A stretch of 22,367 nt of DNA from an uncultured delta proteobacterium (GCA_963712115.1 CAVQGX010000010.1:1-22367); one strand, 5' to 3'. Numbered from the stretch's first letter, positions 1-13,025 are shown. Program-made: numbers and translations. The notes: generated by a model from the sequence alone, not told the origin.

Positions 1-1189
1 TGTTTTCCAGCTGTTCACGGTCGGTGTCTTCACGGTAGATGAAATAAGTCGCCCCGAAGTAGAGGGCAAAGCGCTCACGAACAAGGCCTACTTCTCCCTT
101 GCCAGCAAATTCCCACCAATCGGCTTCTTTGGAAAATTTGTTTCCCCCTGCTGACTGATAGTCAGTTTCCAGCTTGCCTTTATGGTACTCCGCCTGAAGG
201 GCAGAGTAAAAGCCTCGCATGCTGCCATTTTTTACTTCGAAAAGATTTAGCCGGGCCCCGCCGCCGTAAGCCAAATTGAAGTTGTCCATATCGTCAACGT
301 CATAACAGACACCGACATCCGCAAAAAGTCCCAAGAAATCTGTAATTCCGAAGCCAAGGCGCAACATATCCAGGTTCATCTCAGTGTCGAATCTATATTT
401 TTCATTGCCTGAAACGGAAACGTCTGTTTTTGTCGTGCCGCCGTTGGTTGTGATTTCCGTACGCTCGGTTACCTCAGTGTGAACTTCCCGGTAGGTGTGC
501 TGCCAACCAAGGGAAAACTTGCCCCCAACAACATTCCTGCCGTATCCCCTCCTCTGCCACACCGGTTCCTCCTCGCGAGGTTCTGCTTTGACCTTGACCG
601 GTGGCTTGGCAGGGGGAGGGGCAGGTGAGACAGGAGGAGGAGCTTTTTTGGCCTCGGCTACCATTACCTTTTGGGGCTGAGCTGTAACTGGTTTTTTTGT
701 AACTGGCGGTTCCGTCTTTCGAGCCGGCGGTAAAACCGGAGCGGTCTTTTTTTCAATCCTGGGTGCTTTTGCCATGTCCTCCCCTATGGGAGAGTCCTTT
801 CGGTAAATGGCAGTGTATTTGGCAAACCCTCTCTTCTTCAACTCGTCGCTTTTTATTTTAGCCTGATTATATGTGGAGAAAGGGCCGAGGTAAATTCGAT
901 ACCAGTATCCCAGTTTGGGGACCTCCTCCCCCCTTACCACCGCACTGTATCCTTTTTTCTGTAAATCCTTTGCCACCTTAACTGCATTGCTATTCGCTCT
1001 AAATGAGCCGACATGGATATAATAATAATTATTCTTCGCCTGAACCAAATAGGGGTTTAAGAAGAGCCAAAATGTGGCAGTCAAAATTATTGTAATCCAC
1101 AGCCGGATTTTGTCTTGTTTCCTTGGCAAAATTCCGGCCCTTGAATTCTTCCAACAGAACTCTGTCATTTTTGCTCGCTCCATGTCCAT
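1..1189 (-). CDS. SPOR-domain protein with Pro/Lys-rich linker and predicted C-terminal outer-membrane beta-barrel (3' end runs off the window)
   Basis: Not in the ORF track because it has no stop in the window. Manual translation shows in-frame ATGs at 1189/1183/1168, a hydrophobic segment (LWITIILTATFWLFLNPYLVQA), a SPOR motif (YYIHVGSFRANSNAVKVAKDLQKKGY...YWYRIYLGPF), a PPPVSPAPPPAKPP linker, then amphipathic strands (LRLGFGIT, LAYGGGARLNLF, LYFGATYF). The frame is open to base 2. Confidence 0.8.
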   Translation of the reverse strand, partial: MDMERAKMTEFCWKNSRAGILPRKQDKIRLWITIILTATFWLFLNPYLVQAKNNYYYIHVGSFRANSNAVKVAKDLQKKGYSAVVRGEEVPKLGYWYRIYLGPFSTYNQAKIKSDELKKRGFAKYTAIYRKDSPIGEDMAKAPRIEKKTAPVLPPARKTEPPVTKKPVTAQPQKVMVAEAKKAPPPVSPAPPPAKPPVKVKAEPREEEPVWQRRGYGRNVVGGKFSLGWQHTYREVHTEVTERTEITTNGGTTKTDVSVSGNEKYRFDTEMNLDMLRLGFGITDFLGLFADVGVCYDVDDMDNFNLAYGGGARLNLFEVKNGSMRGFYSALQAEYHKGKLETDYQSAGGNKFSKEADWWEFAGKGEVGLVRERFALYFGATYFIYREDTDREQLEN

Positions 1190-1253
1190 GAAATTCCCAA
1201 CAAATGGATTAATATTTTTGCTTTAATTACCTAGGGGTGTATCAACAAGCTCT

Positions 1254-1270
1254 CGCAATAAGAGTGCCAA
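1254..1270 (-). promoter_or_regulatory. sigma-54 (-24/-12) promoter of the SPOR gene
   Basis: The minus strand reads TTGGCAC-TCTTA-TTGCG, with exact GG-N10-GC spacing about 65 bp upstream of the first ATG. Confidence 0.7.
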
Positions 1271-1318
1271 GTTTGCCGATGGTGGGTCTTTCTCAAATCA
1301 AAGACTAAAAAACATGTA

Positions 1319-1336
1319 ATCTTAAATAGTTAAGAT
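1319..1336. promoter_or_regulatory. palindromic operator-like or IHF-like site in the divergent SPOR/yihY spacer
   Basis: ATCTTAA-ATAG-TTAAGAT is a perfect 7-bp inverted repeat about 50 bp upstream of the sigma-54 site. It also partly matches the IHF consensus. Confidence 0.35.
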
Positions 1337-1424
1337 GATGTATGCTGGTTGCTTTGTTGGCAAGGGCTGGAAATGCTGCTACATCTCAAACACTTTAACT
1401 GGCTGGCAAGGATGGAAGGTCATC

Positions 1425-1453
1425 TTGACAAGTAAACCTTAAGTGGTCAGTAT
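1425..1453 (+). promoter_or_regulatory. candidate sigma-70 promoter for yihY
   Basis: TTGACA (1425-1430), 17 nt, then a weak -10 (CAGTAT). Confidence 0.4.
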
Positions 1454-1508
1454 TAGATATTATTTACTGGGTAAACAGGGCTGAAAGCTAAAAGATGTAG
1501 TTTCAACT

Positions 1509-2900
1509 ATGTCAAACAAGACTAATATCAGTGTTTCTCTTAAGAAGCTAATATGGGACAAAGAGTTGTCAGCTTTTCCCTGGTGGAAGGCTTGGCTCAT
1601 CAAATCGGTCCGGATTTGCTATGTTGCGGTGCGGGATGTTGTGGACGGGCAACTCACACTCCGAGCCATGAGTTTGGTATATACCACCTTGCTTGCCCTG
1701 GTGCCCTTGCTTGCCGTTAGCTTTTCCGTGCTCAAAGGCTTTGGAGTGCACAATCAGATAGAACCGCTGTTGCTGAACTTCCTGAGCCCGCTGGGCGAGA
1801 GGGGGGTCGAGATCAGTTCCAGGATCATAGGGTTTGTGGACAATGTGAAAGCAGGAGTTTTGGGTTCTGTGGGTCTGGCCCTTTTAATCTACACGGTTAT
1901 CTCACTGATTCAGAAAATTGAGTCGGCTTTCAATTACACCTGGCGGGTCAAGCGGAGCAGACCACTTGCCCAGAGGTTCAGCGACTACTTGAGCATCATT
2001 TTAGTAGGCCCGGTCCTGATATTCACAGCTCTCGGCATCACAGCCACTCTGACGAGCACGGCCATGGTTCAAATGTTGGTGGCCATTGAGCCCTTCGGGA
2101 GTTTTTTGCAGATAGGAAGTCATTTGCTGCCCTACCTGTTGATCATTACAGCATTTACCTTCTTTTATATCTTCGTGCCCAACAAGAAAGTTCAACTCAT
2201 CTCTGCTTTAATCGGTGGAACCACAGCAGGGGTTCTTTGGGAGGTTACAGGCTGGGGTTTTGCTTCATTTGTGGCTGCATCTACTAGATACACAGCTATT
2301 TATGCGGGTTTTGCCATCCTCATTATGTTCATGGTCTGGGTGTATTTGAGCTGGCTGATTCTCCTTGTGGGGGCGAACATTGCTTACTATCACCAGCATC
2401 CTGAGTCTCTGACGCCCGAGCGGCGGAGTCTGCGCCTGAGTAATCGGCTAAAGGAAAGGCTTTCGCTCTTGGTAATGTTCATGGTGGGGCAAAACCACTA
2501 CCACAACCGCCCGGAGTGGACTCTGGACGATCTCGCTCAGCAACTGCATGTGCCCGCCGATGTTCTAGAACCCATCATCGAATCCCTTGAAAACAAACGA
2601 ATACTCGCCAGTACCGCAACGGATCCCCCAACCTATTTACCCGGGCGGCCCCTGGATACAACGGAAATAAAGGAAGTTCTCCATGCAGTTCGCACAGCCG
2701 ATGAGGCGCCCAACGCCAATCTCAACGACCTTCCGGCTGAACTTGTCGTGGACCAAGTGATCAACGATCTCGACCAGGCCGTGGCTAATGAACTCCGGGG
2801 TCTTACTGTCAAAGAGTTCGCCCTTTCAGAACCATCTAAGGTTAACTTGCTTTCTCAAACATCCGAGAGGCAGAAGGCTTCTTCAGATGAAAGTCATTAG
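1509..2900 (+). CDS. YihY/virulence factor BrkB family inner-membrane protein with C-terminal Rrf2-like winged helix
   Basis: YihY motifs (A-SL-YTTLLALVP, IESAFNYTWRV, YxFVPN, IYAGFA, WLILLVGA) and multiple TM segments. The C-terminal 'WTLDDLAQQLHVPADVLEPIIESLENKRIL' resembles a wHTH. Confidence 0.9.
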   Translation: MSNKTNISVSLKKLIWDKELSAFPWWKAWLIKSVRICYVAVRDVVDGQLTLRAMSLVYTTLLALVPLLAVSFSVLKGFGVHNQIEPLLLNFLSPLGERGVEISSRIIGFVDNVKAGVLGSVGLALLIYTVISLIQKIESAFNYTWRVKRSRPLAQRFSDYLSIILVGPVLIFTALGITATLTSTAMVQMLVAIEPFGSFLQIGSHLLPYLLIITAFTFFYIFVPNKKVQLISALIGGTTAGVLWEVTGWGFASFVAASTRYTAIYAGFAILIMFMVWVYLSWLILLVGANIAYYHQHPESLTPERRSLRLSNRLKERLSLLVMFMVGQNHYHNRPEWTLDDLAQQLHVPADVLEPIIESLENKRILASTATDPPTYLPGRPLDTTEIKEVLHAVRTADEAPNANLNDLPAELVVDQVINDLDQAVANELRGLTVKEFALSEPSKVNLLSQTSERQKASSDESH

Positions 2901-3061
2901 ATCCATTGATACTGCCATTCCCAAGAAACAAATAGGCCGTATGTTTTGTCCTAATAATATTTCACCTTTTTCCCGCCCCCGCGACCGGTATTTGCCATGG
3001 GGGAGGGGAGGTTAGCTTTTTTGGGGGTTGTGCATTCAGGCTTCAGGAGAGGAGGTCCATT

Positions 3062-3301
3062 ATGAAAAAAATTGCCATAGCAGTCGCTATTGTCGCAGCC
3101 CTGGCTTTTGGAGCCTTGAATTATCACTTTATTTTGCTGGATAGTAATATAAAGATACTGAAGAAAGTGGATTTCACTTTCCAGGATACCTTTGTGGATG
3201 CAAGAGGATCTAAGAAATATAAACTCCTTCTTAACCCCGCCCTGGTAAAAGCCGGAGTGAAAGATCTATATAAAAGAGAGGGTATCACTATTGGGAAATG
3301 A
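3062..3301 (+). CDS. small hypothetical protein with N-terminal signal/TM segment (79 aa)
   Basis: Strong RBS (GGAGAGGAGG). N-terminus MKKIAIAVAIVAALAFGAL. Confidence 0.8.
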   Translation: MKKIAIAVAIVAALAFGALNYHFILLDSNIKILKKVDFTFQDTFVDARGSKKYKLLLNPALVKAGVKDLYKREGITIGK

Positions 3302-3380
3302 GGATCTAGCAAGGGTAACTCAACTGACCCTGCTGCTGCCGTTCTTTAAAACCAGACAAACAATCGGGCCCTTGCCCTCG

Positions 3381-3469
3381 GCCCTGAGCGACTCGACCTG
3401 AGGACTTCGAGTGAGCCTCAGTCGAACTCCTCGTCGACAGGTCCCGTCGAAGGGCTCCTCAGAATGACA
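3381..3469. repeat. nested REP-like palindromic element (TGAG...GTCGAA units) followed by a CTCAGAATGACA half-element
   Basis: Outer GCCCTGAGCG...GTCGAAGGGC, middle TCGACCTGAGGA...TCCTCGTCGA, inner TTCGAGTGAGCCTCAGTCGAA. Confidence 0.6.
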
Positions 3470-3544
3470 CCCAGTTGAAGCATTGCTGGATGGCTACTAA
3501 CTGGTATTCACTTAGATAAAGGAAGGAAGACCAAGGAGGTGAAA

Positions 3545-3757
3545 ATGGCTGAGTTAAAATGCCCACTTTGCGGCTCGAATAGTTTCTATACCAAGGACCC
3601 AACAGATCCATATGAAGTCTACGAATTTGATTTGTCAGATGGGAAGGTAGTATTCAGCTCGGAAGTGAATGAATCCGATTTGCCCGAATTTGACGAGGAG
3701 ACCGAGACATACTGCAACAGGTGTGCCTGGCACGACAAACTCAAAACCCTGGGTTAA
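3545..3757 (+). CDS. small acidic zinc-ribbon-like protein (CPLC...CNRC), about 70 aa
   Basis: AGGAGGTG precedes ATG 3545, which is preferred over GTG 3539. Two CxxC motifs. Confidence 0.75.
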   Translation: MAELKCPLCGSNSFYTKDPTDPYEVYEFDLSDGKVVFSSEVNESDLPEFDEETETYCNRCAWHDKLKTLG

Positions 3758-3760
3758 TTA

Positions 3761-3850
3761 AAATTTCAAATTTAAGATTTCAGATTTAAGATTCAAATAC
3801 AGATACTAGCTCTTGAATCTGCAATCTGCATCCTAAAATCTAAAATCGCA
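3761..3850. repeat. inverted pair of heptamer arrays (AGATTTM)n / (MAATCTR)n
   Basis: Left arm aaatttc-aaattta-agatttc-agattta-agattca (3761-3796). Right arm gaatctg-caatctg-catccta-aaatcta-aaatcgc (3813-3850). Confidence 0.75.
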
Positions 3851-3864
3851 AAGGAGGTTTCGAC

Positions 3865-4308
3865 ATGAAGAAGATCATGATTGCCTACGACAGTAGGACC
3901 GGCAAAACGGAAAAAATGGCTGAGTCCATTGCAGAAGGAATCCGTATGGCAGGTCACGAGGCGGAAATCAAAAAGATTACCCAGATCAAAAGCGAGGCAG
4001 AATTGCAGGGGTATGATGCATATGTCTTCGGCTCCCCCACCTACCACAGGGACATGATCGGTACGATGAAGACTTTTCTATTCTTGGCCCAAAAGGCAAA
4101 CCTAGAAGGCAAACTAGGCGGTGCATTTGGTTCATACACCCATAGCGGAGATGCTCCCGCTATAATTTTCGACACCATGGAGCACGTATTCAAGATGAAA
4201 ATGACCAATCTGGGTTCTTTTAATTTGAAGGAACGCCTTGTTGACGGTGCAGAAGGTTTGCGGGCCTGCCAGGATTATGGAAAGTCCATCTGTGAACAAT
4301 TGGCTTAG
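3865..4308 (+). CDS. short-chain flavodoxin-domain protein
   Basis: FMN-binding loop YDSRTGKTEKMA, GSPTY and GAFGSY motifs. RBS AAGGAGG. Confidence 0.9.
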   Translation: MKKIMIAYDSRTGKTEKMAESIAEGIRMAGHEAEIKKITQIKSEAELQGYDAYVFGSPTYHRDMIGTMKTFLFLAQKANLEGKLGGAFGSYTHSGDAPAIIFDTMEHVFKMKMTNLGSFNLKERLVDGAEGLRACQDYGKSICEQLA

Positions 4309-4362
4309 GAGATCGCAGAAACTTTAGATCCAGGCGGATGGTGCATTAAGCCTTGGTGTTAG

Positions 4363-4390
4363 AGCCATGTCCTTTGGGCATGGCTTTTTT
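4363..4390 (+). terminator. rho-independent terminator after flavodoxin
   Basis: AGCCATGTCC-TTT-GGGCATGGCT stem followed by a T-run. Confidence 0.8.
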
Positions 4391-4425
4391 ATGGGCTAGC
4401 CCATGACTACCTCGCAGGTCCCTTT

Positions 4426-4441
4426 TGGCACGGGTCGTGCT
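4426..4441 (+). promoter_or_regulatory. sigma-54 promoter of the TIR gene
   Basis: TGGCACG-GGTC-GTGCT with exact GG-N10-GC spacing, immediately after the flavodoxin terminator. Confidence 0.65.
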
Positions 4442-4499
4442 AAGTGTACGGGGTTGAAGAGAAAATGATCTGTACATTGATTACAACGGGTTGGAAGTT

Positions 4500-4683
4500 T
4501 AGCCCGGATATTTCATGAATCACCTGCTGCGACCACGGATATGGATGTCCTTCCTGGCGTCCTCGAGTGTCGGCCCCTGCGACGTACCGTTTAGGTACGC
4601 CTCGGAACCAACACCCTGCGGTTGCCAGGTGGCACGACCATCTTCGCGGTCTCGCGACAGCAATTCATGAAATATCCGGGCTA
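4500..4683. mobile_element. MITE (184 bp including terminal TA dinucleotides)
   Basis: Perfect 21-bp inverted ends TAGCCCGGATATTTCATGAAT (4500-4520) and ATTCATGAAATATCCGGGCTA (4663-4683). The interior is also self-complementary, and no transposase is encoded. Confidence 0.8.
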
Positions 4684-4698
4684 GGGAGGAATGGAGAA

Positions 4699-5730
4699 TT
4701 GAAGATATTAATCAGTCACGTTTCAGACGAGGCCCTGTTTGCTTTGCTTCTCAAAGACTTTATTGAATCTACCTTCCTCGGGCAATTTGAAGTGTTTCTC
4801 AGCAGCAATTCCGGTGAGCGGGGAGTCGGGGATAAATGGCTGGTGGAAGTCGATGCTTCTCTTAGCAGTGCGGAGCTCCTCTTGGTACTCTGTAGCCCGA
4901 AATCGATTCGCCAACCATGGATACACTTTGAATTCGGCTGCGCCTGGACCAAAAGTATGGCGATTACTTGTATCTGCCACTCGGGGTTGAACAAGGTTGG
5001 TCTACCTCCACACCTTCGTACCTTTGATGTGTTGGAGGTTGAAAATGATGATTTCATGGAGCAACTCTTCAACGACCTGGCAAAGCGATTCGGCATCAAG
5101 CGACTCCCAAGGCTCTCCTATGACACCATGAAAGCCGAGTTGCGCGCTACTCTGGTATCGATTGCATCATCGGCTCAAGCCGGCGACAGAGCAATTCTGA
5201 CCGCTGATGTATCTGAGGGGCTAGTTGCAGTTAGGACAGAAGCTGAAACTTCTCCAGCGCGAGGGCAAGTTTATACTGCACCCGTAAAAACTGACACCGC
5301 AAAGAAGGTTGCTGAGACTCCCCCAGAGATACAACTGGTTGAGGAAGGGTTGGATGATGAAATAGATGGAACCATAGAAGAGAGATTTAGGGAAAGAAAG
5401 GAGACCCCTGAGCCGCAACCTATGTCACGCAGTTCCCCGGGAGTTGTAATTAAGAAGAAGAAAAAACGTGGCAAGAAGAAAGATGAAACAGCCAAACCGG
5501 AGAGCGTACAAAAGAGAGTACTAACGCTCCTTTCGGAAGCTGGGGATACGGGATATCCCTTGGAAGATTTGTCTGATTTGCTGGGTATAGTTGGCCCCAA
5601 ATTAGAGCCTTACCTGGATGTTCTCAAGGAACAGGCATACATAAACATATCTGTTGAAGTTGGCAGGCCTCCCGAATACAAGATCGCCGCAAAGGGAGAG
5701 CAGTACTTGGCAGAGAGCGAGCCTGCCTGA
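4699..5730 (+). CDS. TIR-domain protein (TIR_2-like) with charged linker and C-terminal winged helix
   Basis: TIR motifs KILISH, GDKW, LLVLCSPKSIRQPWIHFEFG (putative catalytic Glu in WxxxE). The C-terminal 'YPLEDLSDLLGIVGPKLEPYLDVLKEQAYI...YKIAAKGEQYL' resembles a wHTH. Start is reassigned to the in-frame TTG 4699 after GGAGA, because the track's GTG 4567 lies inside the MITE. Confidence 0.8.
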   Translation: MKILISHVSDEALFALLLKDFIESTFLGQFEVFLSSNSGERGVGDKWLVEVDASLSSAELLLVLCSPKSIRQPWIHFEFGCAWTKSMAITCICHSGLNKVGLPPHLRTFDVLEVENDDFMEQLFNDLAKRFGIKRLPRLSYDTMKAELRATLVSIASSAQAGDRAILTADVSEGLVAVRTEAETSPARGQVYTAPVKTDTAKKVAETPPEIQLVEEGLDDEIDGTIEERFRERKETPEPQPMSRSSPGVVIKKKKKRGKKKDETAKPESVQKRVLTLLSEAGDTGYPLEDLSDLLGIVGPKLEPYLDVLKEQAYINISVEVGRPPEYKIAAKGEQYLAESEPA

Positions 5731-5749
5731 TCAACTTCCTCGGCGGTTT

Positions 5750-6724
5750 TTAACGGTCACTGAAGTCTTCCCCCGCAATCAATGTCAATGCCCGAGCAGC
5801 TTTCTGCCGAACCAGTGTGCTCTTATCAGTCAGGGCTGCAGACAGCGGTTCTAGTGCACGGGGGTCCCTGATCTTGGCCAAAGCGTCCACCGCGTTTCCC
5901 CTCACTGTGACATCCCTATCATTCAATGCCTCAATAAGCGGTTCCACTGCCAGGGGATCCTTAATGCTGCCCAACGCCTCAGCAGCATGGCTTCTCACAT
6001 CCCAGTGGTCGTCGGATAGGGCGACAACCAGGGATTCCACTGCTCTAGTATCTCCCAGCCAGCCCAGGGCTTGTGCCGCACTCATTCGCACATGTGGTCT
6101 CCTTTCTTTATCCCCAAGGACAACAATCAGGGGTTCTACCGCCCGCGGGTCATTGATCCTTCCAAGTGCTTTTACCGCCTGTCTTTGAATGAGCGGATCT
6201 TTGTCGTTCAGCACCTTAATTAGAGGCTCCACTGCCCTGGGATCCTGGATTGCTCCCAATGCTTTCACCGCATTACTTCGCACTAGAGGATCATGGTCTT
6301 TCAGTTCATATATTAGAGGTCTCACTGCAGGTTTACCTATTTTCATCGAGAGCTCTGTGGGTTGCCTACCGAGAGAAGCGGTACGGGGTAAATCATAATC
6401 CTCGTCCAGGTAGAGCAAGACTTTTTCCCTACTCCACTGGAGACGCTGGGCAATTTCTTCGACATTCAACCCCTCTTCCTGAAGAGACCTCACTGCCAGA
6501 AGTTCCGCCTGTGGTTGGGAGATTTGCAGGTAGCCTTTAGCCCGCATGCATAAAGCTAACTTCCTATCATCTTGCGGATCAGTACTGCACGATTCAAGGT
6601 CGGTCCTGATCATGGCGTCTGAAACTTCTTCTTGGTACCATACCTTCTTTGTTGGGGCACAGCTCGTGAGCCACATGGCTAACGAAGAAAGGAGGATAAT
6701 CCTAAGTGGCGTAGTCAAGACCAT
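5750..6724 (-). CDS. HEAT (PBS-lyase-like) repeat lipoprotein
   Basis: Lipobox LTSC. About six 31-aa repeats of VR-xx-AxxALGxIxDPRAVEPLIxxLxD. GGAG lies 6 nt before ATG 6724 (alternative start 6736). Confidence 0.85.
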   Translation of the reverse strand: MVLTTPLRIILLSSLAMWLTSCAPTKKVWYQEEVSDAMIRTDLESCSTDPQDDRKLALCMRAKGYLQISQPQAELLAVRSLQEEGLNVEEIAQRLQWSREKVLLYLDEDYDLPRTASLGRQPTELSMKIGKPAVRPLIYELKDHDPLVRSNAVKALGAIQDPRAVEPLIKVLNDKDPLIQRQAVKALGRINDPRAVEPLIVVLGDKERRPHVRMSAAQALGWLGDTRAVESLVVALSDDHWDVRSHAAEALGSIKDPLAVEPLIEALNDRDVTVRGNAVDALAKIRDPRALEPLSAALTDKSTLVRQKAARALTLIAGEDFSDR

Positions 6725-6741
6725 GGTAATCTCCATTTCAA

Positions 6742-6935
6742 TTCAAATGGTTCCAACCGTTCAAATCGTCAAATCAGCTCACAGCTGAAAGCTCATAGCT
6801 CAAAGGAAATCGTTCAAGCCGCAATACGATAATTTCGAAATTCGAAATCCGCAATTCGCAATTCTGACCTCTGATCTCCGACCTCCGACTTCTTTCGCCT
6901 GTCCTCCGACCTCTGTCTTTATCCTGCCAGCTGCC
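6742..6935. repeat. stack of short tandem arrays (TTCAAATCG 9-mer; AGCTCAN, AATTCGC, TCYGACC and AGCTGCC heptamers)
   Basis: Read directly. Five different degenerate arrays fill the spacer. Confidence 0.75.
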
Positions 6936-6937
6936 CA

Positions 6938-7831
6938 TCAAGCCCTACCCTTCGCCATTCGGACTTCCAGTCTCTGTACAGCGAGCGAGCAGGTCAAGGT
7001 CATAACAAGGTACAAAATGGTAATGGTAATCCAAATTTCAAAAGTAAGATAGGTCGCCGCCATCAATTCCATTCCCTGAAATGTCAATTCTTGAATAGAG
7101 ATGACCGAAACAATAGAAGAATCCTTAATGAGAGAAATGAATTGTCCAGCCAACGGCGGTAAAATTCTTTGTACTGCTTGGGGTAAGATGACATAGCGCA
7201 TCTGTTGCCATTTGGATAAGCCGAGGGCATGAGAGGCCTCCCACTGGCCCTTGTCGATTGATTGAATACCAGCCCGAATTATCTCGGCAATATATGCTCC
7301 TTCAAAAACCGCAAGGGTAACCAGGGCGGAGAGAAAAGCGGAGAGAAAATTGGAAGGCGCCAAAAGAATTGCGCAGGCCCGCTGCACAATCTCAGATTGG
7401 CTCAAGATGAAATCATCAATAGCCAAAATAGGCATGATCTGGCTGCTGACAAAGTAGTAAAAAATAAAGATCAGCACCAGAGGGGGCATGTTGCGGATTA
7501 ATTCCACGTAAGTTCGGCCCATGAGGCGGTAAAACAATCCCTGGCTTAGGCGGCAGAATCCCACGATAGTACCCAAAACAGTTGCCAGAACCGTACCCCA
7601 GACACTCAGCCTTATGGTAGTGAAAAGACCTTGCATGATTAGATTGGCTACCCACCTGCCACTCTCTTGATCGTAGCGGAAAAAGTACTGGGGTATGGCT
7701 TGCCAATTCCACTTGTAGTTCAACCCATTCCTGATCTTGTGGCTGAGGTAAATCACTCCAGCCAAAATGATCACGGAAATCACAAGATCGAGAGGGGTTA
7801 GCTTAGCTTTCTTTTTTCTCAAATCTGTCAT
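6938..7831 (-). CDS. polar amino acid ABC transporter permease
   Basis: YVELIRNMPPLV, the EAA loop ([27 protein letters not shown]) and LIKDSS. Confidence 0.95.
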   Translation of the reverse strand: MTDLRKKKAKLTPLDLVISVIILAGVIYLSHKIRNGLNYKWNWQAIPQYFFRYDQESGRWVANLIMQGLFTTIRLSVWGTVLATVLGTIVGFCRLSQGLFYRLMGRTYVELIRNMPPLVLIFIFYYFVSSQIMPILAIDDFILSQSEIVQRACAILLAPSNFLSAFLSALVTLAVFEGAYIAEIIRAGIQSIDKGQWEASHALGLSKWQQMRYVILPQAVQRILPPLAGQFISLIKDSSIVSVISIQELTFQGMELMAATYLTFEIWITITILYLVMTLTCSLAVQRLEVRMAKGRA

Positions 7832-7836
7832 CGGTT

Positions 7837-7956
7837 ATTTCGTATTTCACATTTGTTAGCTGCTACCTCACACTCTATGCTCCATGCTCTAACCGTTCCC
7901 AAATCCGAAATCCACAATCCGAAATCTGAAATCTCAAAATGCTCCATGCCAAATGC
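7837..7956. repeat. stack of heptamer arrays (TATTTCR, TCYATGC, AAATCYG)
   Basis: Includes aaatccg-aaatcca-caatccg-aaatctg-aaatctc and tctatgc-tccatgc. Confidence 0.7.
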
Positions 7957-8787
7957 CTACTTAATGAACTGCTCCCAGTCCTTTGTGTTAAACCAGTAAT
8001 TATGTCTCTCTAGCAACCAGCCTTCAGCCTCGACGGAGCGAATCCAACTATTGAAGTAATTGAGGGTGTCGAGGTCGCCCTTGCGGACGGCAAATCCTAT
8101 GAGTTCACGGGAAAACGGCTCAGTGATGGCGAACAGGGTATCTGGATATTTTATGGCTTGGTACGCAGGAGTTGGCAGGGAGGCAACAACGCCATGGAGC
8201 TTGCCATTGAGCAATTCCTGATAGAGTTGGGGTTCTTCTGGAAAGAGGCGGAGCTCTGCCTTGGGCATAACTCGCCTTATCGCGGGCACGGAGGTAGATC
8301 CGAGTCGGGCTCCGAGAATCACGTCGGCACGATTGAAGTCCTCAGGTTGCTTGAAACCGGCAGCCAATTTCTGGTGGGCGCAGATCGTTTGGCCGCTGTA
8401 ATCGTAAGGAATGGTGAAGTTTACTTTAAGGTTGCGATCTGCTCGAATAGTCATGCCTCCTATGATGACGTCGAACTTGCCGGTAAGGAGGGCAGGAATG
8501 ATCCCATCCCACTTGGTCGGGATAAACTCGACCTCCACCCCGGTGTCTTTTGCCAGTCGAGTGGCAACGTCGATTTCGAAACCAATGAATTTACCAGTCT
8601 TATCCTTCATGGCCCAGGGAACAAAAGTGGACATGCCCACACGAAGTACCCCCCGCTTAATTATTGTTTCTATGGTGCTTTCAGCTATTAATTGTTTCTG
8701 CAACTTACCTGCCGAGGCCGATATCACCAAGGAAAACACCAGAGTGGTGGTGATTAAAGCTTGAAGGAGTCCCCGAAGTGTTTTCAT
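7957..8787 (-). CDS. polar amino acid ABC transporter substrate-binding protein (SBP family 3)
   Basis: Signal peptide. Motifs GVLRVG, GFEID, WDGIIPALLTGKFD and VNFTIPY. RBS AAGGAG. Confidence 0.95.
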   Translation of the reverse strand: MKTLRGLLQALITTTLVFSLVISASAGKLQKQLIAESTIETIIKRGVLRVGMSTFVPWAMKDKTGKFIGFEIDVATRLAKDTGVEVEFIPTKWDGIIPALLTGKFDVIIGGMTIRADRNLKVNFTIPYDYSGQTICAHQKLAAGFKQPEDFNRADVILGARLGSTSVPAIRRVMPKAELRLFPEEPQLYQELLNGKLHGVVASLPTPAYQAIKYPDTLFAITEPFSRELIGFAVRKGDLDTLNYFNSWIRSVEAEGWLLERHNYWFNTKDWEQFIK

Positions 8788-8810
8788 CTTTTACTCCTTT
8801 CTACTAAACT

Positions 8811-9100
8811 CGCAGAGCGCATAGCGCATAGCGTTAAGTCAAATCGTTAAAGTCGTTAACGGTAAACCGCACGAGATGTTATCCGTTATTCGTTATACGT
8901 TATACGCAAAAGATCAGCCTATAACTCGTTCTAACTTTAAACTTTGAACCTTGAACTTTGAACTACTGCCCTCTGCCCTTTGACCTCTACCGATTACAAC
9001 AAATGACAGCGAAGCGTACTGACCCAATGACGCCGAAGGCAAATGACTCATGACCTGCCTGCTGCTAGCTGCCAGCTGTATTTCCCCATGCTCTATGCCC
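8811..9100. repeat. stack of eight short arrays (CGCATAG, AAATCGTT-type 9-mer, CGTTATA, AACTTTG, TCTGCCC, AATGAC+hairpin, CTGCTAG, CTCTATG)
   Basis: Read directly from the 313-bp spacer between the ATPase and SBP genes. Confidence 0.75.
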
Positions 9101-9853
9101 TCAAAGAATCTGGCTAATGAACTGTTTAGTTCTCTCTTCCTGTGGATTGGAAAATATCTGTTCCACCGATCCTTCTTCCACAATTCTTCCCTCGTCCATA
9201 AATATGACCCGATCGCCAACTTCGCGTGCGAACCCCATCTCGTGGGTAACCACGACCATGGTCATTCCCTCCCGGGCGAGCGTTTTCATGACCTCCAGGA
9301 CTTCACCGATCATCTCTGGATCAAGAGCACTAGTTGCCTCGTCAAAAAGCATTACTTTGGGTACCATTGCCAGGGCCCTGGCAATGGCAACTCGTTGTTG
9401 TTGACCGCCGCTGAGTTGGCCTGGATAGACATGGGCTTTCTCAGGAATGCCAACTTTTTCCAACAAGGACATGGTAGTCTCTGTGGCCTCTTCTTTTCTC
9501 TTGTTCCTCACCAGTACTTGCGCCAGATTGACATTTTCCAGGACAGTCAGGTGGGGGAAGAGGTTAAATGACTGGAAGACCATGCCTACCTCTTTGCGAA
9601 TTTCTAGACGATTCTCCTTGTTGTCATCAAGAAGTATACTGTCGATGGTAATGGTGCCTCTATCAAAATCTTCGAGGCCGTTCAGGCACCTAAGAAATGT
9701 GGACTTCCCGGCGCCCGAAGGACCTATGATTACCACAACCTCTCTGCGCCGGATCTTGGTGGAGAAATCATCAAGAGCTCTGACACCACCGGGAAAAGTC
9801 TTGTAAACCCCCTCTACTTCAATGATGTAATCACCCAGGGTCTTTCTTTGCAT
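9101..9853 (-). CDS. polar amino acid ABC transporter ATP-binding protein (GlnQ/HisP family)
   Basis: Walker A GPSGAGKS, signature [15 protein letters not shown], Walker B MLFDE, and H-loop VTHEMGFA. Confidence 0.95.
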
Positions 9854-9869
9854 CGAAATCTTCCAAGGG

Positions 9870-10676
9870 TTAGGTTAATGCCAGGATGTCGGCAATGGTT
9901 GAAAGCACAACAGTGAGAACGAGGTAGATGGCTGCCACGGTGAACCAGACCTCAAAGGTTAAGAAAGTCTCACTAATGATCACTTGTGCCTGCATGGTCA
10001 AATCGTATATGGCGACGGTGGATACTAGTGCCGAGTCTTTAATCAGCGAGACTGCCTGACTGGTGAGAGGAGGAAGTATCCGCCTGATCGCCTGGGGCAG
10101 AATTATATACCTATAGGTGTGAATAGCGCTGAGACCAAGGCTATGGGCCGCCTCCCATTGTCCTTTGTCTATGGAGACTATACCAGCCCGGAAGATTTCC
10201 GAGGCGTAGGCTCCCTCGAATAGGCTCAATGCGAGCACCCCTGCGGTAAACCTGCCGATCCCCAATGCTGGTGCAAGGACAAAATAGATGAAAAACAACT
10301 GAACCAGAAGGGGGGTGTTTCTGATCAGTTCCAAATAACCTCGCGCCACAGCTCTACCTACAAATGAGTCAGACATTCTCAACAAGGCGGTCACCAGACC
10401 AAAAAGAGCGGCTAGCACCAGACTCCAGGAGCAGATGCGCAAAGTTACAATCAAGCCGTCCATTAAAGGACCGAGTACGAGCTTGCTGCCTTCGAAGCTG
10501 AAGATGTATCTGGGCACTCGGTGCCACTGCCAGTTATAGCCCAATCTCTCCGTTCCTCTGTAGAGCAGCCAACTAAGGGCAACTATGACGAGTAAAAACT
10601 TAATGATGTCAACCCACGGCAAGGTAGTAAAGGGAAGCCGAAAAGGGCGAGAACTTCGATTGCTGACTAAAGCCAT
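9870..10676 (-). CDS. polar amino acid ABC transporter permease
   Basis: [13 protein letters not shown], the EAA loop and [11 protein letters not shown] 10676 is preferred over the track's start at 10724; the start is uncertain. Confidence 0.9.
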
Positions 10677-10702
10677 AAGGTAGCACCAAGGGCCAGAGAA
10701 TT

Positions 10703-10719
10703 GGCAAAAGCTATTCCAA
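10703..10719 (-). promoter_or_regulatory. possible sigma-54 promoter for the ABC operon
   Basis: The minus strand reads TTGGAAT-AGCTT-TTGCC (GG-N10-GC), but the -24 box is imperfect and the leader would be very short. Confidence 0.3.
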
Positions 10720-10742
10720 AACAAGGGTAGTAGATGGGTTTA

Positions 10743-11405
10743 TGATGTGTGCTGTGTGATGTGCGATGTGGAATGAATAATCAAGCACATTGTCTGGGCA
10801 ACGCTTTTTCATCTCACATCTCATATCCCATATCCCAGATCAGATAATCAAACTCGGGTCGCGTATGGAAAAACTCAGTATCCAGCATCGAGCATCAAGA
10901 ATCAAGCATCCAGCATCAAGAATCCAGCATCGAGAATCTAGCATCCAGCGTCGTGCGTTCTATTTTATGCAACATTTTTACTATTTCAACCAATTCCGCA
11001 AATTGTATGTCGGTTGTCAGAAAAAGCATGGCGCATGGGGCATAGGGTATAGGGCATAGAGTATTTGGCGAGACGTGCGAGACGGGAGGTCGGGCGAGAC
11101 GGGATCAGAGGTCAGAAGACAGAGGTCGGAGGACAGGAGGTCACTAGGCACTAAGGACTAGGCACTATGCGGGGCTGGACGACGCGGGGACGCGGAGAAA
11201 CGGCGAGACGGGGATATTCAGCAGGCAGCATGCAGCTAGCAGGAAAAAGATATCCTGTATAGATAATGGTTTTTGCATGTCTCGAGCTGACTGCTGTCAG
11301 CTGCAAGCTGGCTCCTGGATTCTGGCTCCTGACTTCTGGCTCCTTGAGCCTTTACGATTTAAACGACTTCAACGATTTGAACGGTTTGAACGACTTGAAC
11401 AATTT
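10743..11405. repeat. large mosaic of about 11 different 7/8/9-mer tandem arrays
   Basis: TGATGTG x4 / CATCTCA x4 inverted pair (10743-10837); NAGMATC x11 (10876-10952); GGCATAG x5 (11025-11061); GCGAGACG-type; GGTCAGA x5 (11103-11137); CACTAGG x4 (11142-11170); GACGCGGG x4; CAGCAGG x3; AGCTGAC x4; TGGCTCC x5; AACGATTTG-type 9-mer x6 (11352-11405). Confidence 0.85.
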
Positions 11406-11426
11406 AATTTGTCTCAGCGGTTAAGC

Positions 11427-12860
11427 TTACGCGCTCAAAACAACAGTGTCACGCTGAATGGCGTGGTTGGAGTTGGCCTCCCTGAAGTAAATACCCTTGC
11501 GGTAAAAGGGATAGTAAACCAACCTGGATTTCTCGACCTTAATTTTTGACTCTTTCAGTGAGTTGCGAGCGCGGCGGTTATATCTGGGCACCATGGAGAT
11601 AAGTACCGTTTGGGCTAATTGTTCGGCTTCGGGGTCAGCTAGGCACACTGCCTCGAACCTTTCTTTTTCCAGTCTTTTTTTAGGGCGAAGTTGTTTGGAG
11701 GGTGGGCTAACGCAGAAAAGGTTGGCCAACTTGGAAAGGGACTTGGGGCTTCTAATTTTGAAAGCTGGAATCAGAAACCGAATTGACTTGGAACCATTTT
11801 CTCCTTCCCTTGCTAGCGGAAGGTTAGGTAACAATTCGCGGAGGTCGGAACGGCTACTCAACACCCCACCGCTAATTTGAATCTGGGTTTCAATATCCCA
11901 GAAGGGCATGTAACGGACATCATGTTCGAACCTTTTCGGAGTAGCCACTAGCTGATACTCCACTTCCTGGTAACTACCAGCGTTTTCGGTCCAGGCCCGG
12001 GTGCAAGTGGGACAAATGTGAGTCTTGCTGGCGGGAGAGAAAGGGAGATTCCAGCCGCATACCGGGCAGGTAAATGGAATCAGGCGGAGATCGCTGAAGT
12101 TAACTACCGTTTCACTCGGCAGGCGTTTCTTGAAAAAAGACTCTACAGTCTTATTCCACACGGTTTTCCTGACGCGATTGGCCACCCCATCAATAATCAG
12201 CAGACCGCTCCTATCTTTTGCTTCTACCACCAGAACCCAGAATGGAAAATAGACTACTGAGTAGACTTCTCCCACCAATTTTGTATCTGCAAATTCCACC
12301 CTCAAGCTTCGATCAGAGAAGCCGTAGGTTAGGAAGCTGCTAGTGTATTTCCTTGCCTCCTGGAGGCCTACCTCAGCAGGAAGAACAATCTCTGCACCGG
12401 AGAGCCTGGTGTGGTGGAAGAGCTGCAAGGGTATGGCAGAGGTGCGCACTCCCATAGACGGCAAGTTAAGATCTGGTTCCCTGTAGGCTGGAAAAGAGAA
12501 ATCGAAGATCTTGGTTTTAAGTTCCTTAGCGTCATCCCATGTGCTCATACCCAATTTTGAAACAGTGTGCCTCTTGCCCAGCAGCCAATGAAAGACCATT
12601 CCTATAGTTCGCCAGTATGGAGCATAGACCAAATAAAGTTCCTTCTTTTTCCAGCGCCATGACTCTTTGCTGATAAGTAAGGTCGAAATCCGATGGTGAA
12701 ATTGTGTTTCAGTCCAGCGTGGCGGAAACATAAACCGCGGAATGCCTGACTTACCGGAAATCTGATTTGTGGAGCCGCAATACTGACAGCGAACCACCTC
12801 GATTTCTTCGTCAAAGACTATGTCGCCCCCGCACTGGGGGCAATCGACCTTGATTTGCAT
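11427..12860 (-). CDS. zinc-ribbon protein (YdjG-like) with apparent internal duplication
   Basis: CPQC/CQYC + YAPYW...YFPFW, then CPVC/CPTC + YMPFW...YYPFY. Lies downstream of the SPFH gene. Confidence 0.75.
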   Translation of the reverse strand: MQIKVDCPQCGGDIVFDEEIEVVRCQYCGSTNQISGKSGIPRFMFPPRWTETQFHHRISTLLISKESWRWKKKELYLVYAPYWRTIGMVFHWLLGKRHTVSKLGMSTWDDAKELKTKIFDFSFPAYREPDLNLPSMGVRTSAIPLQLFHHTRLSGAEIVLPAEVGLQEARKYTSSFLTYGFSDRSLRVEFADTKLVGEVYSVVYFPFWVLVVEAKDRSGLLIIDGVANRVRKTVWNKTVESFFKKRLPSETVVNFSDLRLIPFTCPVCGWNLPFSPASKTHICPTCTRAWTENAGSYQEVEYQLVATPKRFEHDVRYMPFWDIETQIQISGGVLSSRSDLRELLPNLPLAREGENGSKSIRFLIPAFKIRSPKSLSKLANLFCVSPPSKQLRPKKRLEKERFEAVCLADPEAEQLAQTVLISMVPRYNRRARNSLKESKIKVEKSRLVYYPFYRKGIYFREANSNHAIQRDTVVLSA

Positions 12861-12924
12861 GATCTAAGTAGCCATGTTTTACGATTGGTGCCGACTACAA
12901 GGTTTTGCTCTGAACGAACGCCAA

Positions 12925-13025
12925 TGGAGTACTGGAGTGCTGGAGTTATGGAGTAATGGGTTTCAAAAGCTCACGTCGTTACCATGTCTTTGCAGTACTC
13001 CATTACTCCACTACTCCATTACTCC
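12925..13025. repeat. inverted pair of octamer arrays (TGGAGTAN)x4 / (NTACTCCA)x4
   Basis: Left arm 12925-12958, right arm 12993-13025. Could form an approximately 33-bp stem. Confidence 0.85.

Follow-up and report, generated by a model that had tools for sequence, protein, structure and literature searches.

Inverted matches around an ABC-transporter operon of an uncultured deltaproteobacterium and the dispersed mosaic repeats of its genome

The 22,367-bp contig CAVQGX010000010.1 (C10) from assembly GCA_963712115.1 of an uncultured deltaproteobacterium, analysed here in full and called the window, carries an operon for an ABC transporter of the polar-amino-acid type, and the block upstream of this operon (positions 11025-11405) has exact reverse complements in several spacers further downstream. 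How do inverted matches come to bracket an operon? An earlier note on this DNA had proposed a modular addressing system of orthogonal zippers that would pair across kilobases in a polycistronic RNA or in single-stranded DNA, and had named as the alternative the footprints of a process that deposits repeats. We compared the window with the genome to which it belongs (G000; 4.9 Mb, 70 contigs, 48.9% G+C) and with related loci, and conclude that the inverted matches are very probably a by-product of dispersed mosaic repeats and not a pairing code.

The inverted matches and hairpin element A

All seven reverse-complement matches of the earlier note were recovered (22/22, 15/15, 15/15, 17/18, 11/11, 10/10 and 11/11), and a repeat search found the same arms, one of which extends to 28 nt at 89% identity (6742-6769 with 11372-11399). 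Also, Tandem Repeats Finder (TRF) resolved the block 11025-11405 into a stack of short arrays, as had been described. Genome-wide (4.9 Mb), the 22-mer has a single copy on each strand; there are 9 and 10 copies of the two 15-mers, 15 and 72 of the 11-mers and 146 of the 10-mer. The unit families involved rank 1, 2, 5 and 21 among 274. The spacer between the operon and its upstream gene (10725-11426) shares exact matches of at least 10 nt with 1320, of at least 11 nt with 812, of at least 15 nt with 202 and of at least 22 nt with 31 of the 3258 other spacers obtained from a crude caller of open reading frames (ORFs). Matches of 10-11 nt are therefore uninformative, as the upstream spacer shares such matches with hundreds of spacers. 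The claim that the matches exceed chance holds for the longer ones, but the four short ones (10-11 nt and 17/18) are at chance level. The order of the matches, described as roughly nested, is so only weakly: counted from the coordinates, 13 of the 21 pairings are nested but 8 cross, and the partners 11362-11379 and 11372-11386 claim overlapping bases.

Two dispersed hairpins, elements A and B, were found in the genome through recurrent bigrams of arrays, in which adjacent inverted arrays proved to be conserved hairpins. The core of element A, ~90-100 nt long, consists of CAGAGGT-type arms and an 11-nt loop; degenerate GCAGCAGG arrays precede the core and a 9-mer array follows it. Core columns are mostly at least 90% conserved. 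The genome holds 34 copies of at least 70 nt (e.g., C34:16865-16967, L099), and a whole-genome search gave 44 matches. All 17 other genomes of the genus carry element A, as does the single genome of the family's second genus, giving 18 of 18 genomes family-wide, whereas a search of 12 genomes from five further families of the class found none. Element A folds with -48.3 kcal/mol (z -4.8) on one strand and with -37.9 kcal/mol on the other, and its consensus hairpin comprises 23 pairs with 97.8% of the cells paired across 30 distinct copies. Covariation is weak: both sides have changed in a single pair (AU 23, GC 5), among copies that are related by descent. In co-directional contexts, 17 copies are sense and 5 antisense. 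Element B, with CAGGTTT/CAGGTGT arms and a T-rich loop, occurs in both orientations and gave 78 BLAST high-scoring segment pairs, with dozens of copies of at least 70 nt (e.g., C27:32749-32826, L100). No Rfam family reached its gathering score in the window, and for elements A and B Rfam returned only sub-threshold hairpin look-alikes (best 32.5 bits against a cut-off of 55).

When the window was searched with a 190-nt element-A query, the matches obtained (Table 1) coincided with the three strong matches of the earlier note. In the genome, heptamer and 9-mer modules stand together in 32 spacer orientations, where ~4.7 would be expected if they were independent, and in 30 of these 32 the heptamers are on the 5' side. 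In the window itself the two arms are not adjacent but separated by 4.2 kb. We propose that the spacers 10725-11426 and 6737-6937 each hold a degenerate copy of the element-A type, CAGAGGT-type heptamers and then a 9-mer array, and that these copies lie in opposite orientations. Mosaic copies so placed would give rise to the 22/22 match and to both 15/15 matches, including the one that extends to 28 nt, and the 9-mer-array match would enclose the two heptamer-array matches because both spacers share the same order of two modules. The remaining matches of 10-18 nt would be what any two array-rich spacers of this genome have in common. The fact that each partner matches some part of a single dispersed mosaic agrees with the repeat-depositing process offered as the alternative in the earlier note.

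Array load of the genome and sharing between neighboring spacers

TRF analysis of the genome returned 4676 rows, with 2115 arrays of period 7, 426 of period 8 and 541 of period 9, and the merged arrays amount to 111,804 bp or 2.28% of the genome. The period-7 arrays form 274 canonical heptamer families, of which ACTAGGC is the commonest (144 arrays), followed by ACCTCTG (120 arrays), the family of the CAGAGGT-type arrays. Three ACTAGGC units with up to two mismatches matched 185 times in G000, and the reversed control pattern (three CGGATCA units) gave no match there or elsewhere in the window's genus. The same control pattern matched 33 + 41 times in G026, which belongs to another family of the class, so that heptamer arrays with another vocabulary exist elsewhere in the class. 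Period-7 arrays are mostly non-coding (1865 of 2115 with less than 50% overlap with crude ORFs), at least one array is found in 1128 of 3132 spacers, and orientation relative to co-directional genes is 647 sense and 611 antisense. The arrays fall outside the definition of CRISPR arrays, in which unique spacers alternate with repeats of 24-48 nt, since the units here are of 7-9 nt and follow each other head-to-tail without intervening spacers. Array families are clumped by region of the genome, and neighboring arrays keep preferred orders: 103 of 483 adjacent pairs belong to bigram types seen at least four times, compared with an expectation of 1.15 and a maximum of 14 in 300 shuffles.

Segments of 50-115 nt that span several arrays of the block 11025-11405 recur on many contigs with 76-92% identity (BLAST). 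The array stretch 11354-11405 has 39-46 BLAST matches genome-wide, and contigs C37 and C68 match the segment 11232-11344 over 87-99 nt with 77-83% identity. The ACTAGGC array and the G+C-rich module beside it recur together, with at least 10 BLAST matches of 57-79 nt and 80-86% identity covering 11142/11143-11215, and the same stretch has an inverted 38-nt match of 100% in the related locus L088, in the spacer between the last permease gene (permB) and the HEAT-repeat gene. The arrays of the predicted operon 5' leader have only 0-2 BLAST matches genome-wide, the stretch 10725-11005 is nearly free of mosaic recurrences, and strains differ there by 7-nt indels at 10742 and 10746. Unit number varies between strains, and arrays differ by indels of 7, 14 and 18 nt when the window is compared with contig C9 of the same genome or with contigs from public runs, although part of the differences from C9 may be errors, as C9 contains frameshifts.

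Sharing between spacers depends on their distance. Among 9965 pairs of spacers not more than 5 kb apart, 83 share a 22-mer in direct and 31 in inverted orientation, whereas among 5,167,612 pairs on different contigs the numbers are 5769 and 5618, corresponding to an increase among nearby spacers of 7.6-fold (direct) and 2.9-fold (inverted). At least two separate 15-nt matches were shared by 65 (direct) and 26 (inverted) of the 9965 nearby pairs and by 4417 (direct) and 4312 (inverted) of the 5,167,612 pairs on different contigs; the spacers 6737-6937 and 10725-11426 are one of the 26. Similarly, same-family arrays in different spacers up to 5 kb apart amount to 89 direct and 66 inverted cases, with ~44 of each expected from 300 label shuffles, and this enrichment reaches, more weakly, to 100 kb. 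The earlier note had suggested comparing nearby inverted partners with the background; local sharing is indeed enriched 3- to 8-fold, in agreement with a repeat-depositing process, but direct sharing exceeds inverted sharing, which does not support a code of inverted partners. A strand or replichore polarity of the families as the cause of the local direct excess was rejected, as orientations are mixed on the 20 largest contigs and show no relation to GC skew.

The intergenic spacers of the genome and of the genus are thus colonized by stacked short arrays, mostly of 7-nt and some of 8-9-nt units, which recur in preferred orders and include conserved hairpin elements. In the scenario proposed here, slippage would change the unit numbers, while recombination, template switching or transposition would carry copies of segments from one spacer to another, in both orientations and more often over short distances.

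Related loci, close strains and the rival explanations

Members of the genus share the order SPFH, 477-aa gene, permease, ATPase, binding protein, permease and HEAT, and 13 of 13 related loci agree with the window in gene order and orientation. These same-genus genomes were used for comparison instead of the two closest of 80 ATPase loci (L001 and L002), which had 0 and 1 TRF rows, respectively. Length and content of the orthologous spacers vary widely. Eight loci have the upstream spacer and at least one downstream spacer, and inverted exact matches of more than 10 nt between upstream and downstream spacers were found only in the window (22 nt) and in L087 (30 nt); in 6 of the 8 loci inverted matches were not longer than 10 nt, and direct matches did not exceed 10 nt in any of the eight. 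By BLAST, the window and the 13 related loci showed local spacer-to-spacer copies in 4 direct and 3 inverted spacer pairs, with a 242-nt direct copy in L092 and a 98-nt inverted copy (92%) in L087. Modules of the window's upstream spacer recur inverted in the permB-HEAT spacers of L086-L089 and L091, and the upstream stacks of L087 and L090 are nearly identical, which together indicates that stacks are both inherited and copied.

The block 11025-11405 sits between the stop codon of the 477-aa gene, from which 22 nt separate its first array, and the predicted operon promoter. In each of the nine orthologous upstream spacers that were compared, the core of this promoter-like site can be aligned, but the arrays to either side of it differ between loci. 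As the block lies upstream of this conserved site, it could pair with downstream spacers in one RNA only if transcripts of the upstream gene read through into the operon; a scan of the minus strand gave no terminator-like site within 10725-11426.

In marine-sediment and estuary metagenome runs the stretch was found at 46-58% of the sampled words, and in part it was also found in RNA libraries. Contigs from public runs represent strains that are 90-99% alike and differ by unit-multiple array indels (7, 18 nt). In contigs of runs X15 and X16 the spacer 6664-6947 is replaced by 245 other letters, with flanks ~98% alike or more. An opposite-strand joint, 7856|11317, was seen in three runs from three studies (X15, X17 and X1), with a shorter side of up to 79 letters; it lies away from the arms of the earlier note, no shared letters were reported there, and it could be an inversion breakpoint or an inverted upstream copy in the spacer between the solute-binding protein (SBP) gene and permB of a related strain. 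Joints with sides of only 20-34 letters (e.g., 6862>9090, 11127>6869 and 11382>6862) were rejected as rearrangements and attributed to array repeats elsewhere or in other organisms. Uncovered parts and depth spikes over arrays in the run contigs were not counted as evidence.

With these data the rival explanations can be weighed. A pure coincidence, in which arrays of abundant families entered the two spacers in separate events unconnected by copying, is rather improbable. Upstream-spacer words of 22 and 15 nt are shared with many spacers, as given above, and some such pairs are expected when each window offers several neighboring spacers and many windows are scanned; however, nearby spacers share 22-mers well above the rate for different contigs in both orientations, two different modules in the same relative order are common to both spacers, and the 22-mer has an identical series of imperfect units. 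The long-range RNA zipper, in which the upstream block would pair with downstream spacers in a polycistronic RNA and direct its processing or differential stability, is highly improbable. Perfect 22-bp and 28-nt, 89% duplexes could form if the arms shared one RNA, the genes from 12860 to 5750 are all co-directional in the ORF list, no terminator-like site was found in the upstream spacer, and RNA-library contigs cover parts of the region, although contigs do not prove transcription. Nevertheless, the conserved promoter-like site parts the block from the operon, pairings cross and two partners overlap, 6 of 8 orthologous loci lack the partner relation, near-identical strains have other sequence in place of the downstream partner spacer, and nearby sharing in the genome is mainly direct. 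The units also belong to the commonest families, which are present in both orientations genome-wide. A high genome-wide copy number of the matching words, which the earlier note had named as telling against a code, was largely found, except that the exact 22-mer is not itself high-copy.

That the inverted copies act as recombination substrates, mediating inversion of an operon segment in part of the population either incidentally or as a switch, also appears quite unlikely. Inverted repeats of 22-28 nt do bracket the operon, inverted segments of ~100 nt do arise between these spacers, as seen in L087, and the joint 7856|11317 recurs in three studies. Yet this joint is not at the arms in question, an inverted upstream copy in the SBP-permB spacer would give the same contig and exists in L087 with gene order intact, and the remaining joints are ascribed to repeats. 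Gene order and orientation are constant among the related loci, and Pfam searches of 20 window ORFs detected no recombinase family. Finally, it is unlikely that the heptad mosaics including element A form a lineage-wide functional system, with RNA hairpins and arrays bound by a repeat-reading protein or cut by a double-strand RNase. If this were true, oppositely oriented copies on either side of an operon might form duplexes in read-through RNA or cause inversion and re-inversion again and again, thereby shuffling spacer segments; the joint 7856|11317 and the inverted copies that arose independently in the window and in L087 would then be what this process left behind.

Several points weigh against interpreting the matches as a mere by-product of mosaic repeats. 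The 22-mer pair shares unit variants and their order beyond family membership, and as this 22-mer is confined genome-wide to two sites, a specific copying event, or selection, links them. Both the window and L087 have inverted copies between the upstream spacer and internal or downstream spacers, and a related strain may have one too (7856|11317); such recurrence at one operon exceeds what a genome-wide rate of 0.26-0.31% would lead one to expect. Element A is asymmetric between the strands, in its fold and in its 17:5 sense bias, which may point to an RNA-level role of the repeats. Spacer boundaries are approximate, as the gene model came from a crude ORF caller, and the public runs were compared as contigs.

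For the by-product interpretation it follows that striking long-range complementarity is to be expected from the repeat load of this genome, and similar 'codes' elsewhere in this genome or in the genus should be discounted unless they rise above the local background. About 2.3% of the genome of an uncultured sediment bacterium consists of ordered stacks of 7-9-nt arrays, in addition to family-wide conserved hairpins, and these repeats fragment assemblies and differ between strains that are ~98% alike or more in flanking genes.

Known repeat systems and further features of the locus

The STRR (short tandemly repeated repetitive) sequences of heterocystous cyanobacteria are dispersed tandem heptanucleotides, mainly non-coding, with several families per genome. 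The arrays described here are similar in all these respects. However, the three STRR units gave 0, 2 and 0 arrays, and in an ATPase search the named matches were exclusively metagenome-assembled genomes (MAGs) of Deltaproteobacteria and Desulfatiglandales with up to 77% identity, not cyanobacteria. For gyrB, a protein atlas returned only clusters labelled Pseudomonadota / Thermodesulfobacteriota. Dispersed modular intergenic elements of the REP/BIME, ERIC, BOX and Correia types are non-coding, occur in both orientations and include some transcribed hairpins, and they can yield fortuitous inverted repeats around operons. A dispersed imperfect-palindrome hairpin in the sense of REP/BIME is represented here only by element A (~100 nt, dozens of copies), which has no sequence relation to any of these types and whose arms are made of 7-nt periodic units that grade into arrays. 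In invertons, inverted repeats flank a promoter-containing segment. Inverted repeats flank a segment with a promoter-like site here as well, but Pfam searches of 20 window ORFs gave no recombinase family, the repeats belong to high-copy families, and gene orientation is fixed in 13 relatives.

Geobacter metallireducens has families of 16-49 dispersed elements composed of 3-5 tandem units of 7-9 nt, some with paired sites on opposite strands, and in the part of that report available to us their function is given as unknown or as regulatory by proposal (PMC2700814). The GGACCGG unit of that system formed no array here, and both copy and family numbers are far larger here than those given in that part of the report (PMC2700814). 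Within the literature searched, and as far as the texts available in part allow, a mosaic of this kind in a deltaproteobacterial-type lineage was found only for G. metallireducens, which is not proof of its absence elsewhere. In Beggiatoaceae, cyanobacteria and some Bacteroidetes, the available part of MacGregor 2015 (PMC4679880) describes mostly intergenic direct repeats of the heptamer TAACTGA in sets of 2-6 or more at hundreds of places. The same portion mentions spacers with larger heptamer assemblages, mixed heptamers in Microcystis, contigs that end in repeats, and relatives with the same gene neighborhood but without repeats (PMC4679880). The short 7-nt direct repeats of G000 are likewise mostly intergenic and located in hundreds of places. 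In contrast to that system as described in this portion, TAACTGA formed 0 TRF arrays in G000, 274 unit families take the place of one dominant unit, the arrays do not accumulate just 5' of start codons, being depleted in the final tenth of co-directional spacers, and conserved hairpin elements belong to the system. Abundance, non-coding location and strain variation in unit number place the arrays in the class of dispersed intergenic short tandem repeats with units of 5-11 nt (LSSR/STRR-like), from whose known members they differ by a very large vocabulary, ordered stacking and family-wide conserved heptad-periodic hairpins. They offer a natural system for studying how heptamer arrays arise and spread, a question that the available part of MacGregor 2015 leaves open for cyanobacteria and Beggiatoaceae (PMC4679880).

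Features of the window that bear on the matches are collected in Table 1. For the 477-aa protein encoded upstream of the operon, a Pfam search gave only a sub-threshold zinc-ribbon match.

Table 1. Positions of genes, arrays and element-A matches in the window
Feature	Position	Strand	Basis and remarks
Upstream gene, 477 aa	11427..12860	-	ORF list; family not clear; orthologue in same position in relatives
9-mer tandem array, unit ACGATTTGA, 5.8 copies	11354..11405	+	TRF; 3' array module of element-A-type mosaic
Non-array dispersed segment with short palindrome (11232-11318), then CTGGCTC heptamer array (11308-11344)	11232..11344		TRF
ACTAGGC-family heptamer array and adjoining G+C-rich module (~45 nt)	11142..11215	+	TRF
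CAGAGGT-type heptamer array	11103..11143	+	TRF; like element A left arm; contains 22-mer and one 15-mer
GCATAGG heptamer array (family rank 5) and GGCGAGACG 9-mer array	11033..11103	+	TRF; 9-30 BLAST matches
Operon promoter-like site, TTGAAA, 16 nt, TAAAAT	10962..10989	-	Best sigma-70-like match in 6600-11600, 10/12
Arrays in predicted operon 5' leader: TGATGTG, ATCCCAT, 21-nt higher-order CAGCATC	10743..10949		TRF
ABC transporter operon, polar-amino-acid type	6938..10724	-	Pfam BPD_transp_1, ABC_tran, SBP_bac_3; synteny across genus
First permease gene (permease A)	9870-10724	-	Pfam
ATPase gene	9101-9853	-	Pfam
Family-3 SBP gene	7957-8787	-	Pfam
Last permease gene (permB)	6938-7831	-	Pfam
Operon-internal spacers filled with arrays	8788-9100 and 7832-7956		TRF
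ACCTCTG-type heptamer array	6862..6919	+	TRF; like element A right arm; partner of 22-mer and one 15-mer
9-mer array, opposite orientation to 11354-11405	6742..6775	-	Partner of 15/15 (28 nt, 89%) match
HEAT-repeat protein gene, 3' of operon	5750..6736	-	Pfam HEAT_2, HEAT_PBS; bounds spacer 6737-6937
Element A left arm	11105-11137	+	Query 60-92, 85%
Element A 9-mer tail	11369-11398	+	Query 152-181, 90%
Element A right arm	6864-6893	+	Query 100-129, 87%
Element A 9-mer tail	6769-6743	-	Query 155-181, 93%

Within the same assembly, the end of contig C9 (58290-69396) duplicates window positions 1-10736 at 98.5-99.7% identity and terminates exactly at the start of the upstream array stack. All four transporter genes of this copy are frameshifted by small indels, and the duplication resembles strain redundancy or an assembly artefact, the contamination estimate of the genome being 5.99%. 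Small indels of the C9 copy also break the 22-mer, but in view of the frameshifts C9 was excluded as evidence on the 22-mer.

The operon seems to decay in some species while its neighbors stay in place. With the queries used, the ATPase gene was not found between permease A and the binding-protein gene in L086 (G013) and L089 (G008), and in L095 (G003) neither of the two permeases nor the ATPase was found. In three more distantly related operons from MAGs of Deltaproteobacteria or an unclassified bacterium (L016, L022 and L030; ATPase 62-65% identity), paired heptamer arrays stand directly 3' of the ATPase gene, and in L016 the pair is an array and its reverse complement.

Elsewhere in the window, positions 4567-5730 (+) encode a 387-aa protein with a weak, sub-threshold TIR_2 match (23.6 bits against a cut-off of 28), and positions 4499-4691 have two more partial copies on C9. 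Between the genes for the SPFH protein and the 477-aa protein, in a spacer partly conserved in L088 and L089, an 8-mer array AATGGAGT (12923-12959) and its reverse complement (12996-13025) face each other 37 nt apart and could form a long hairpin.

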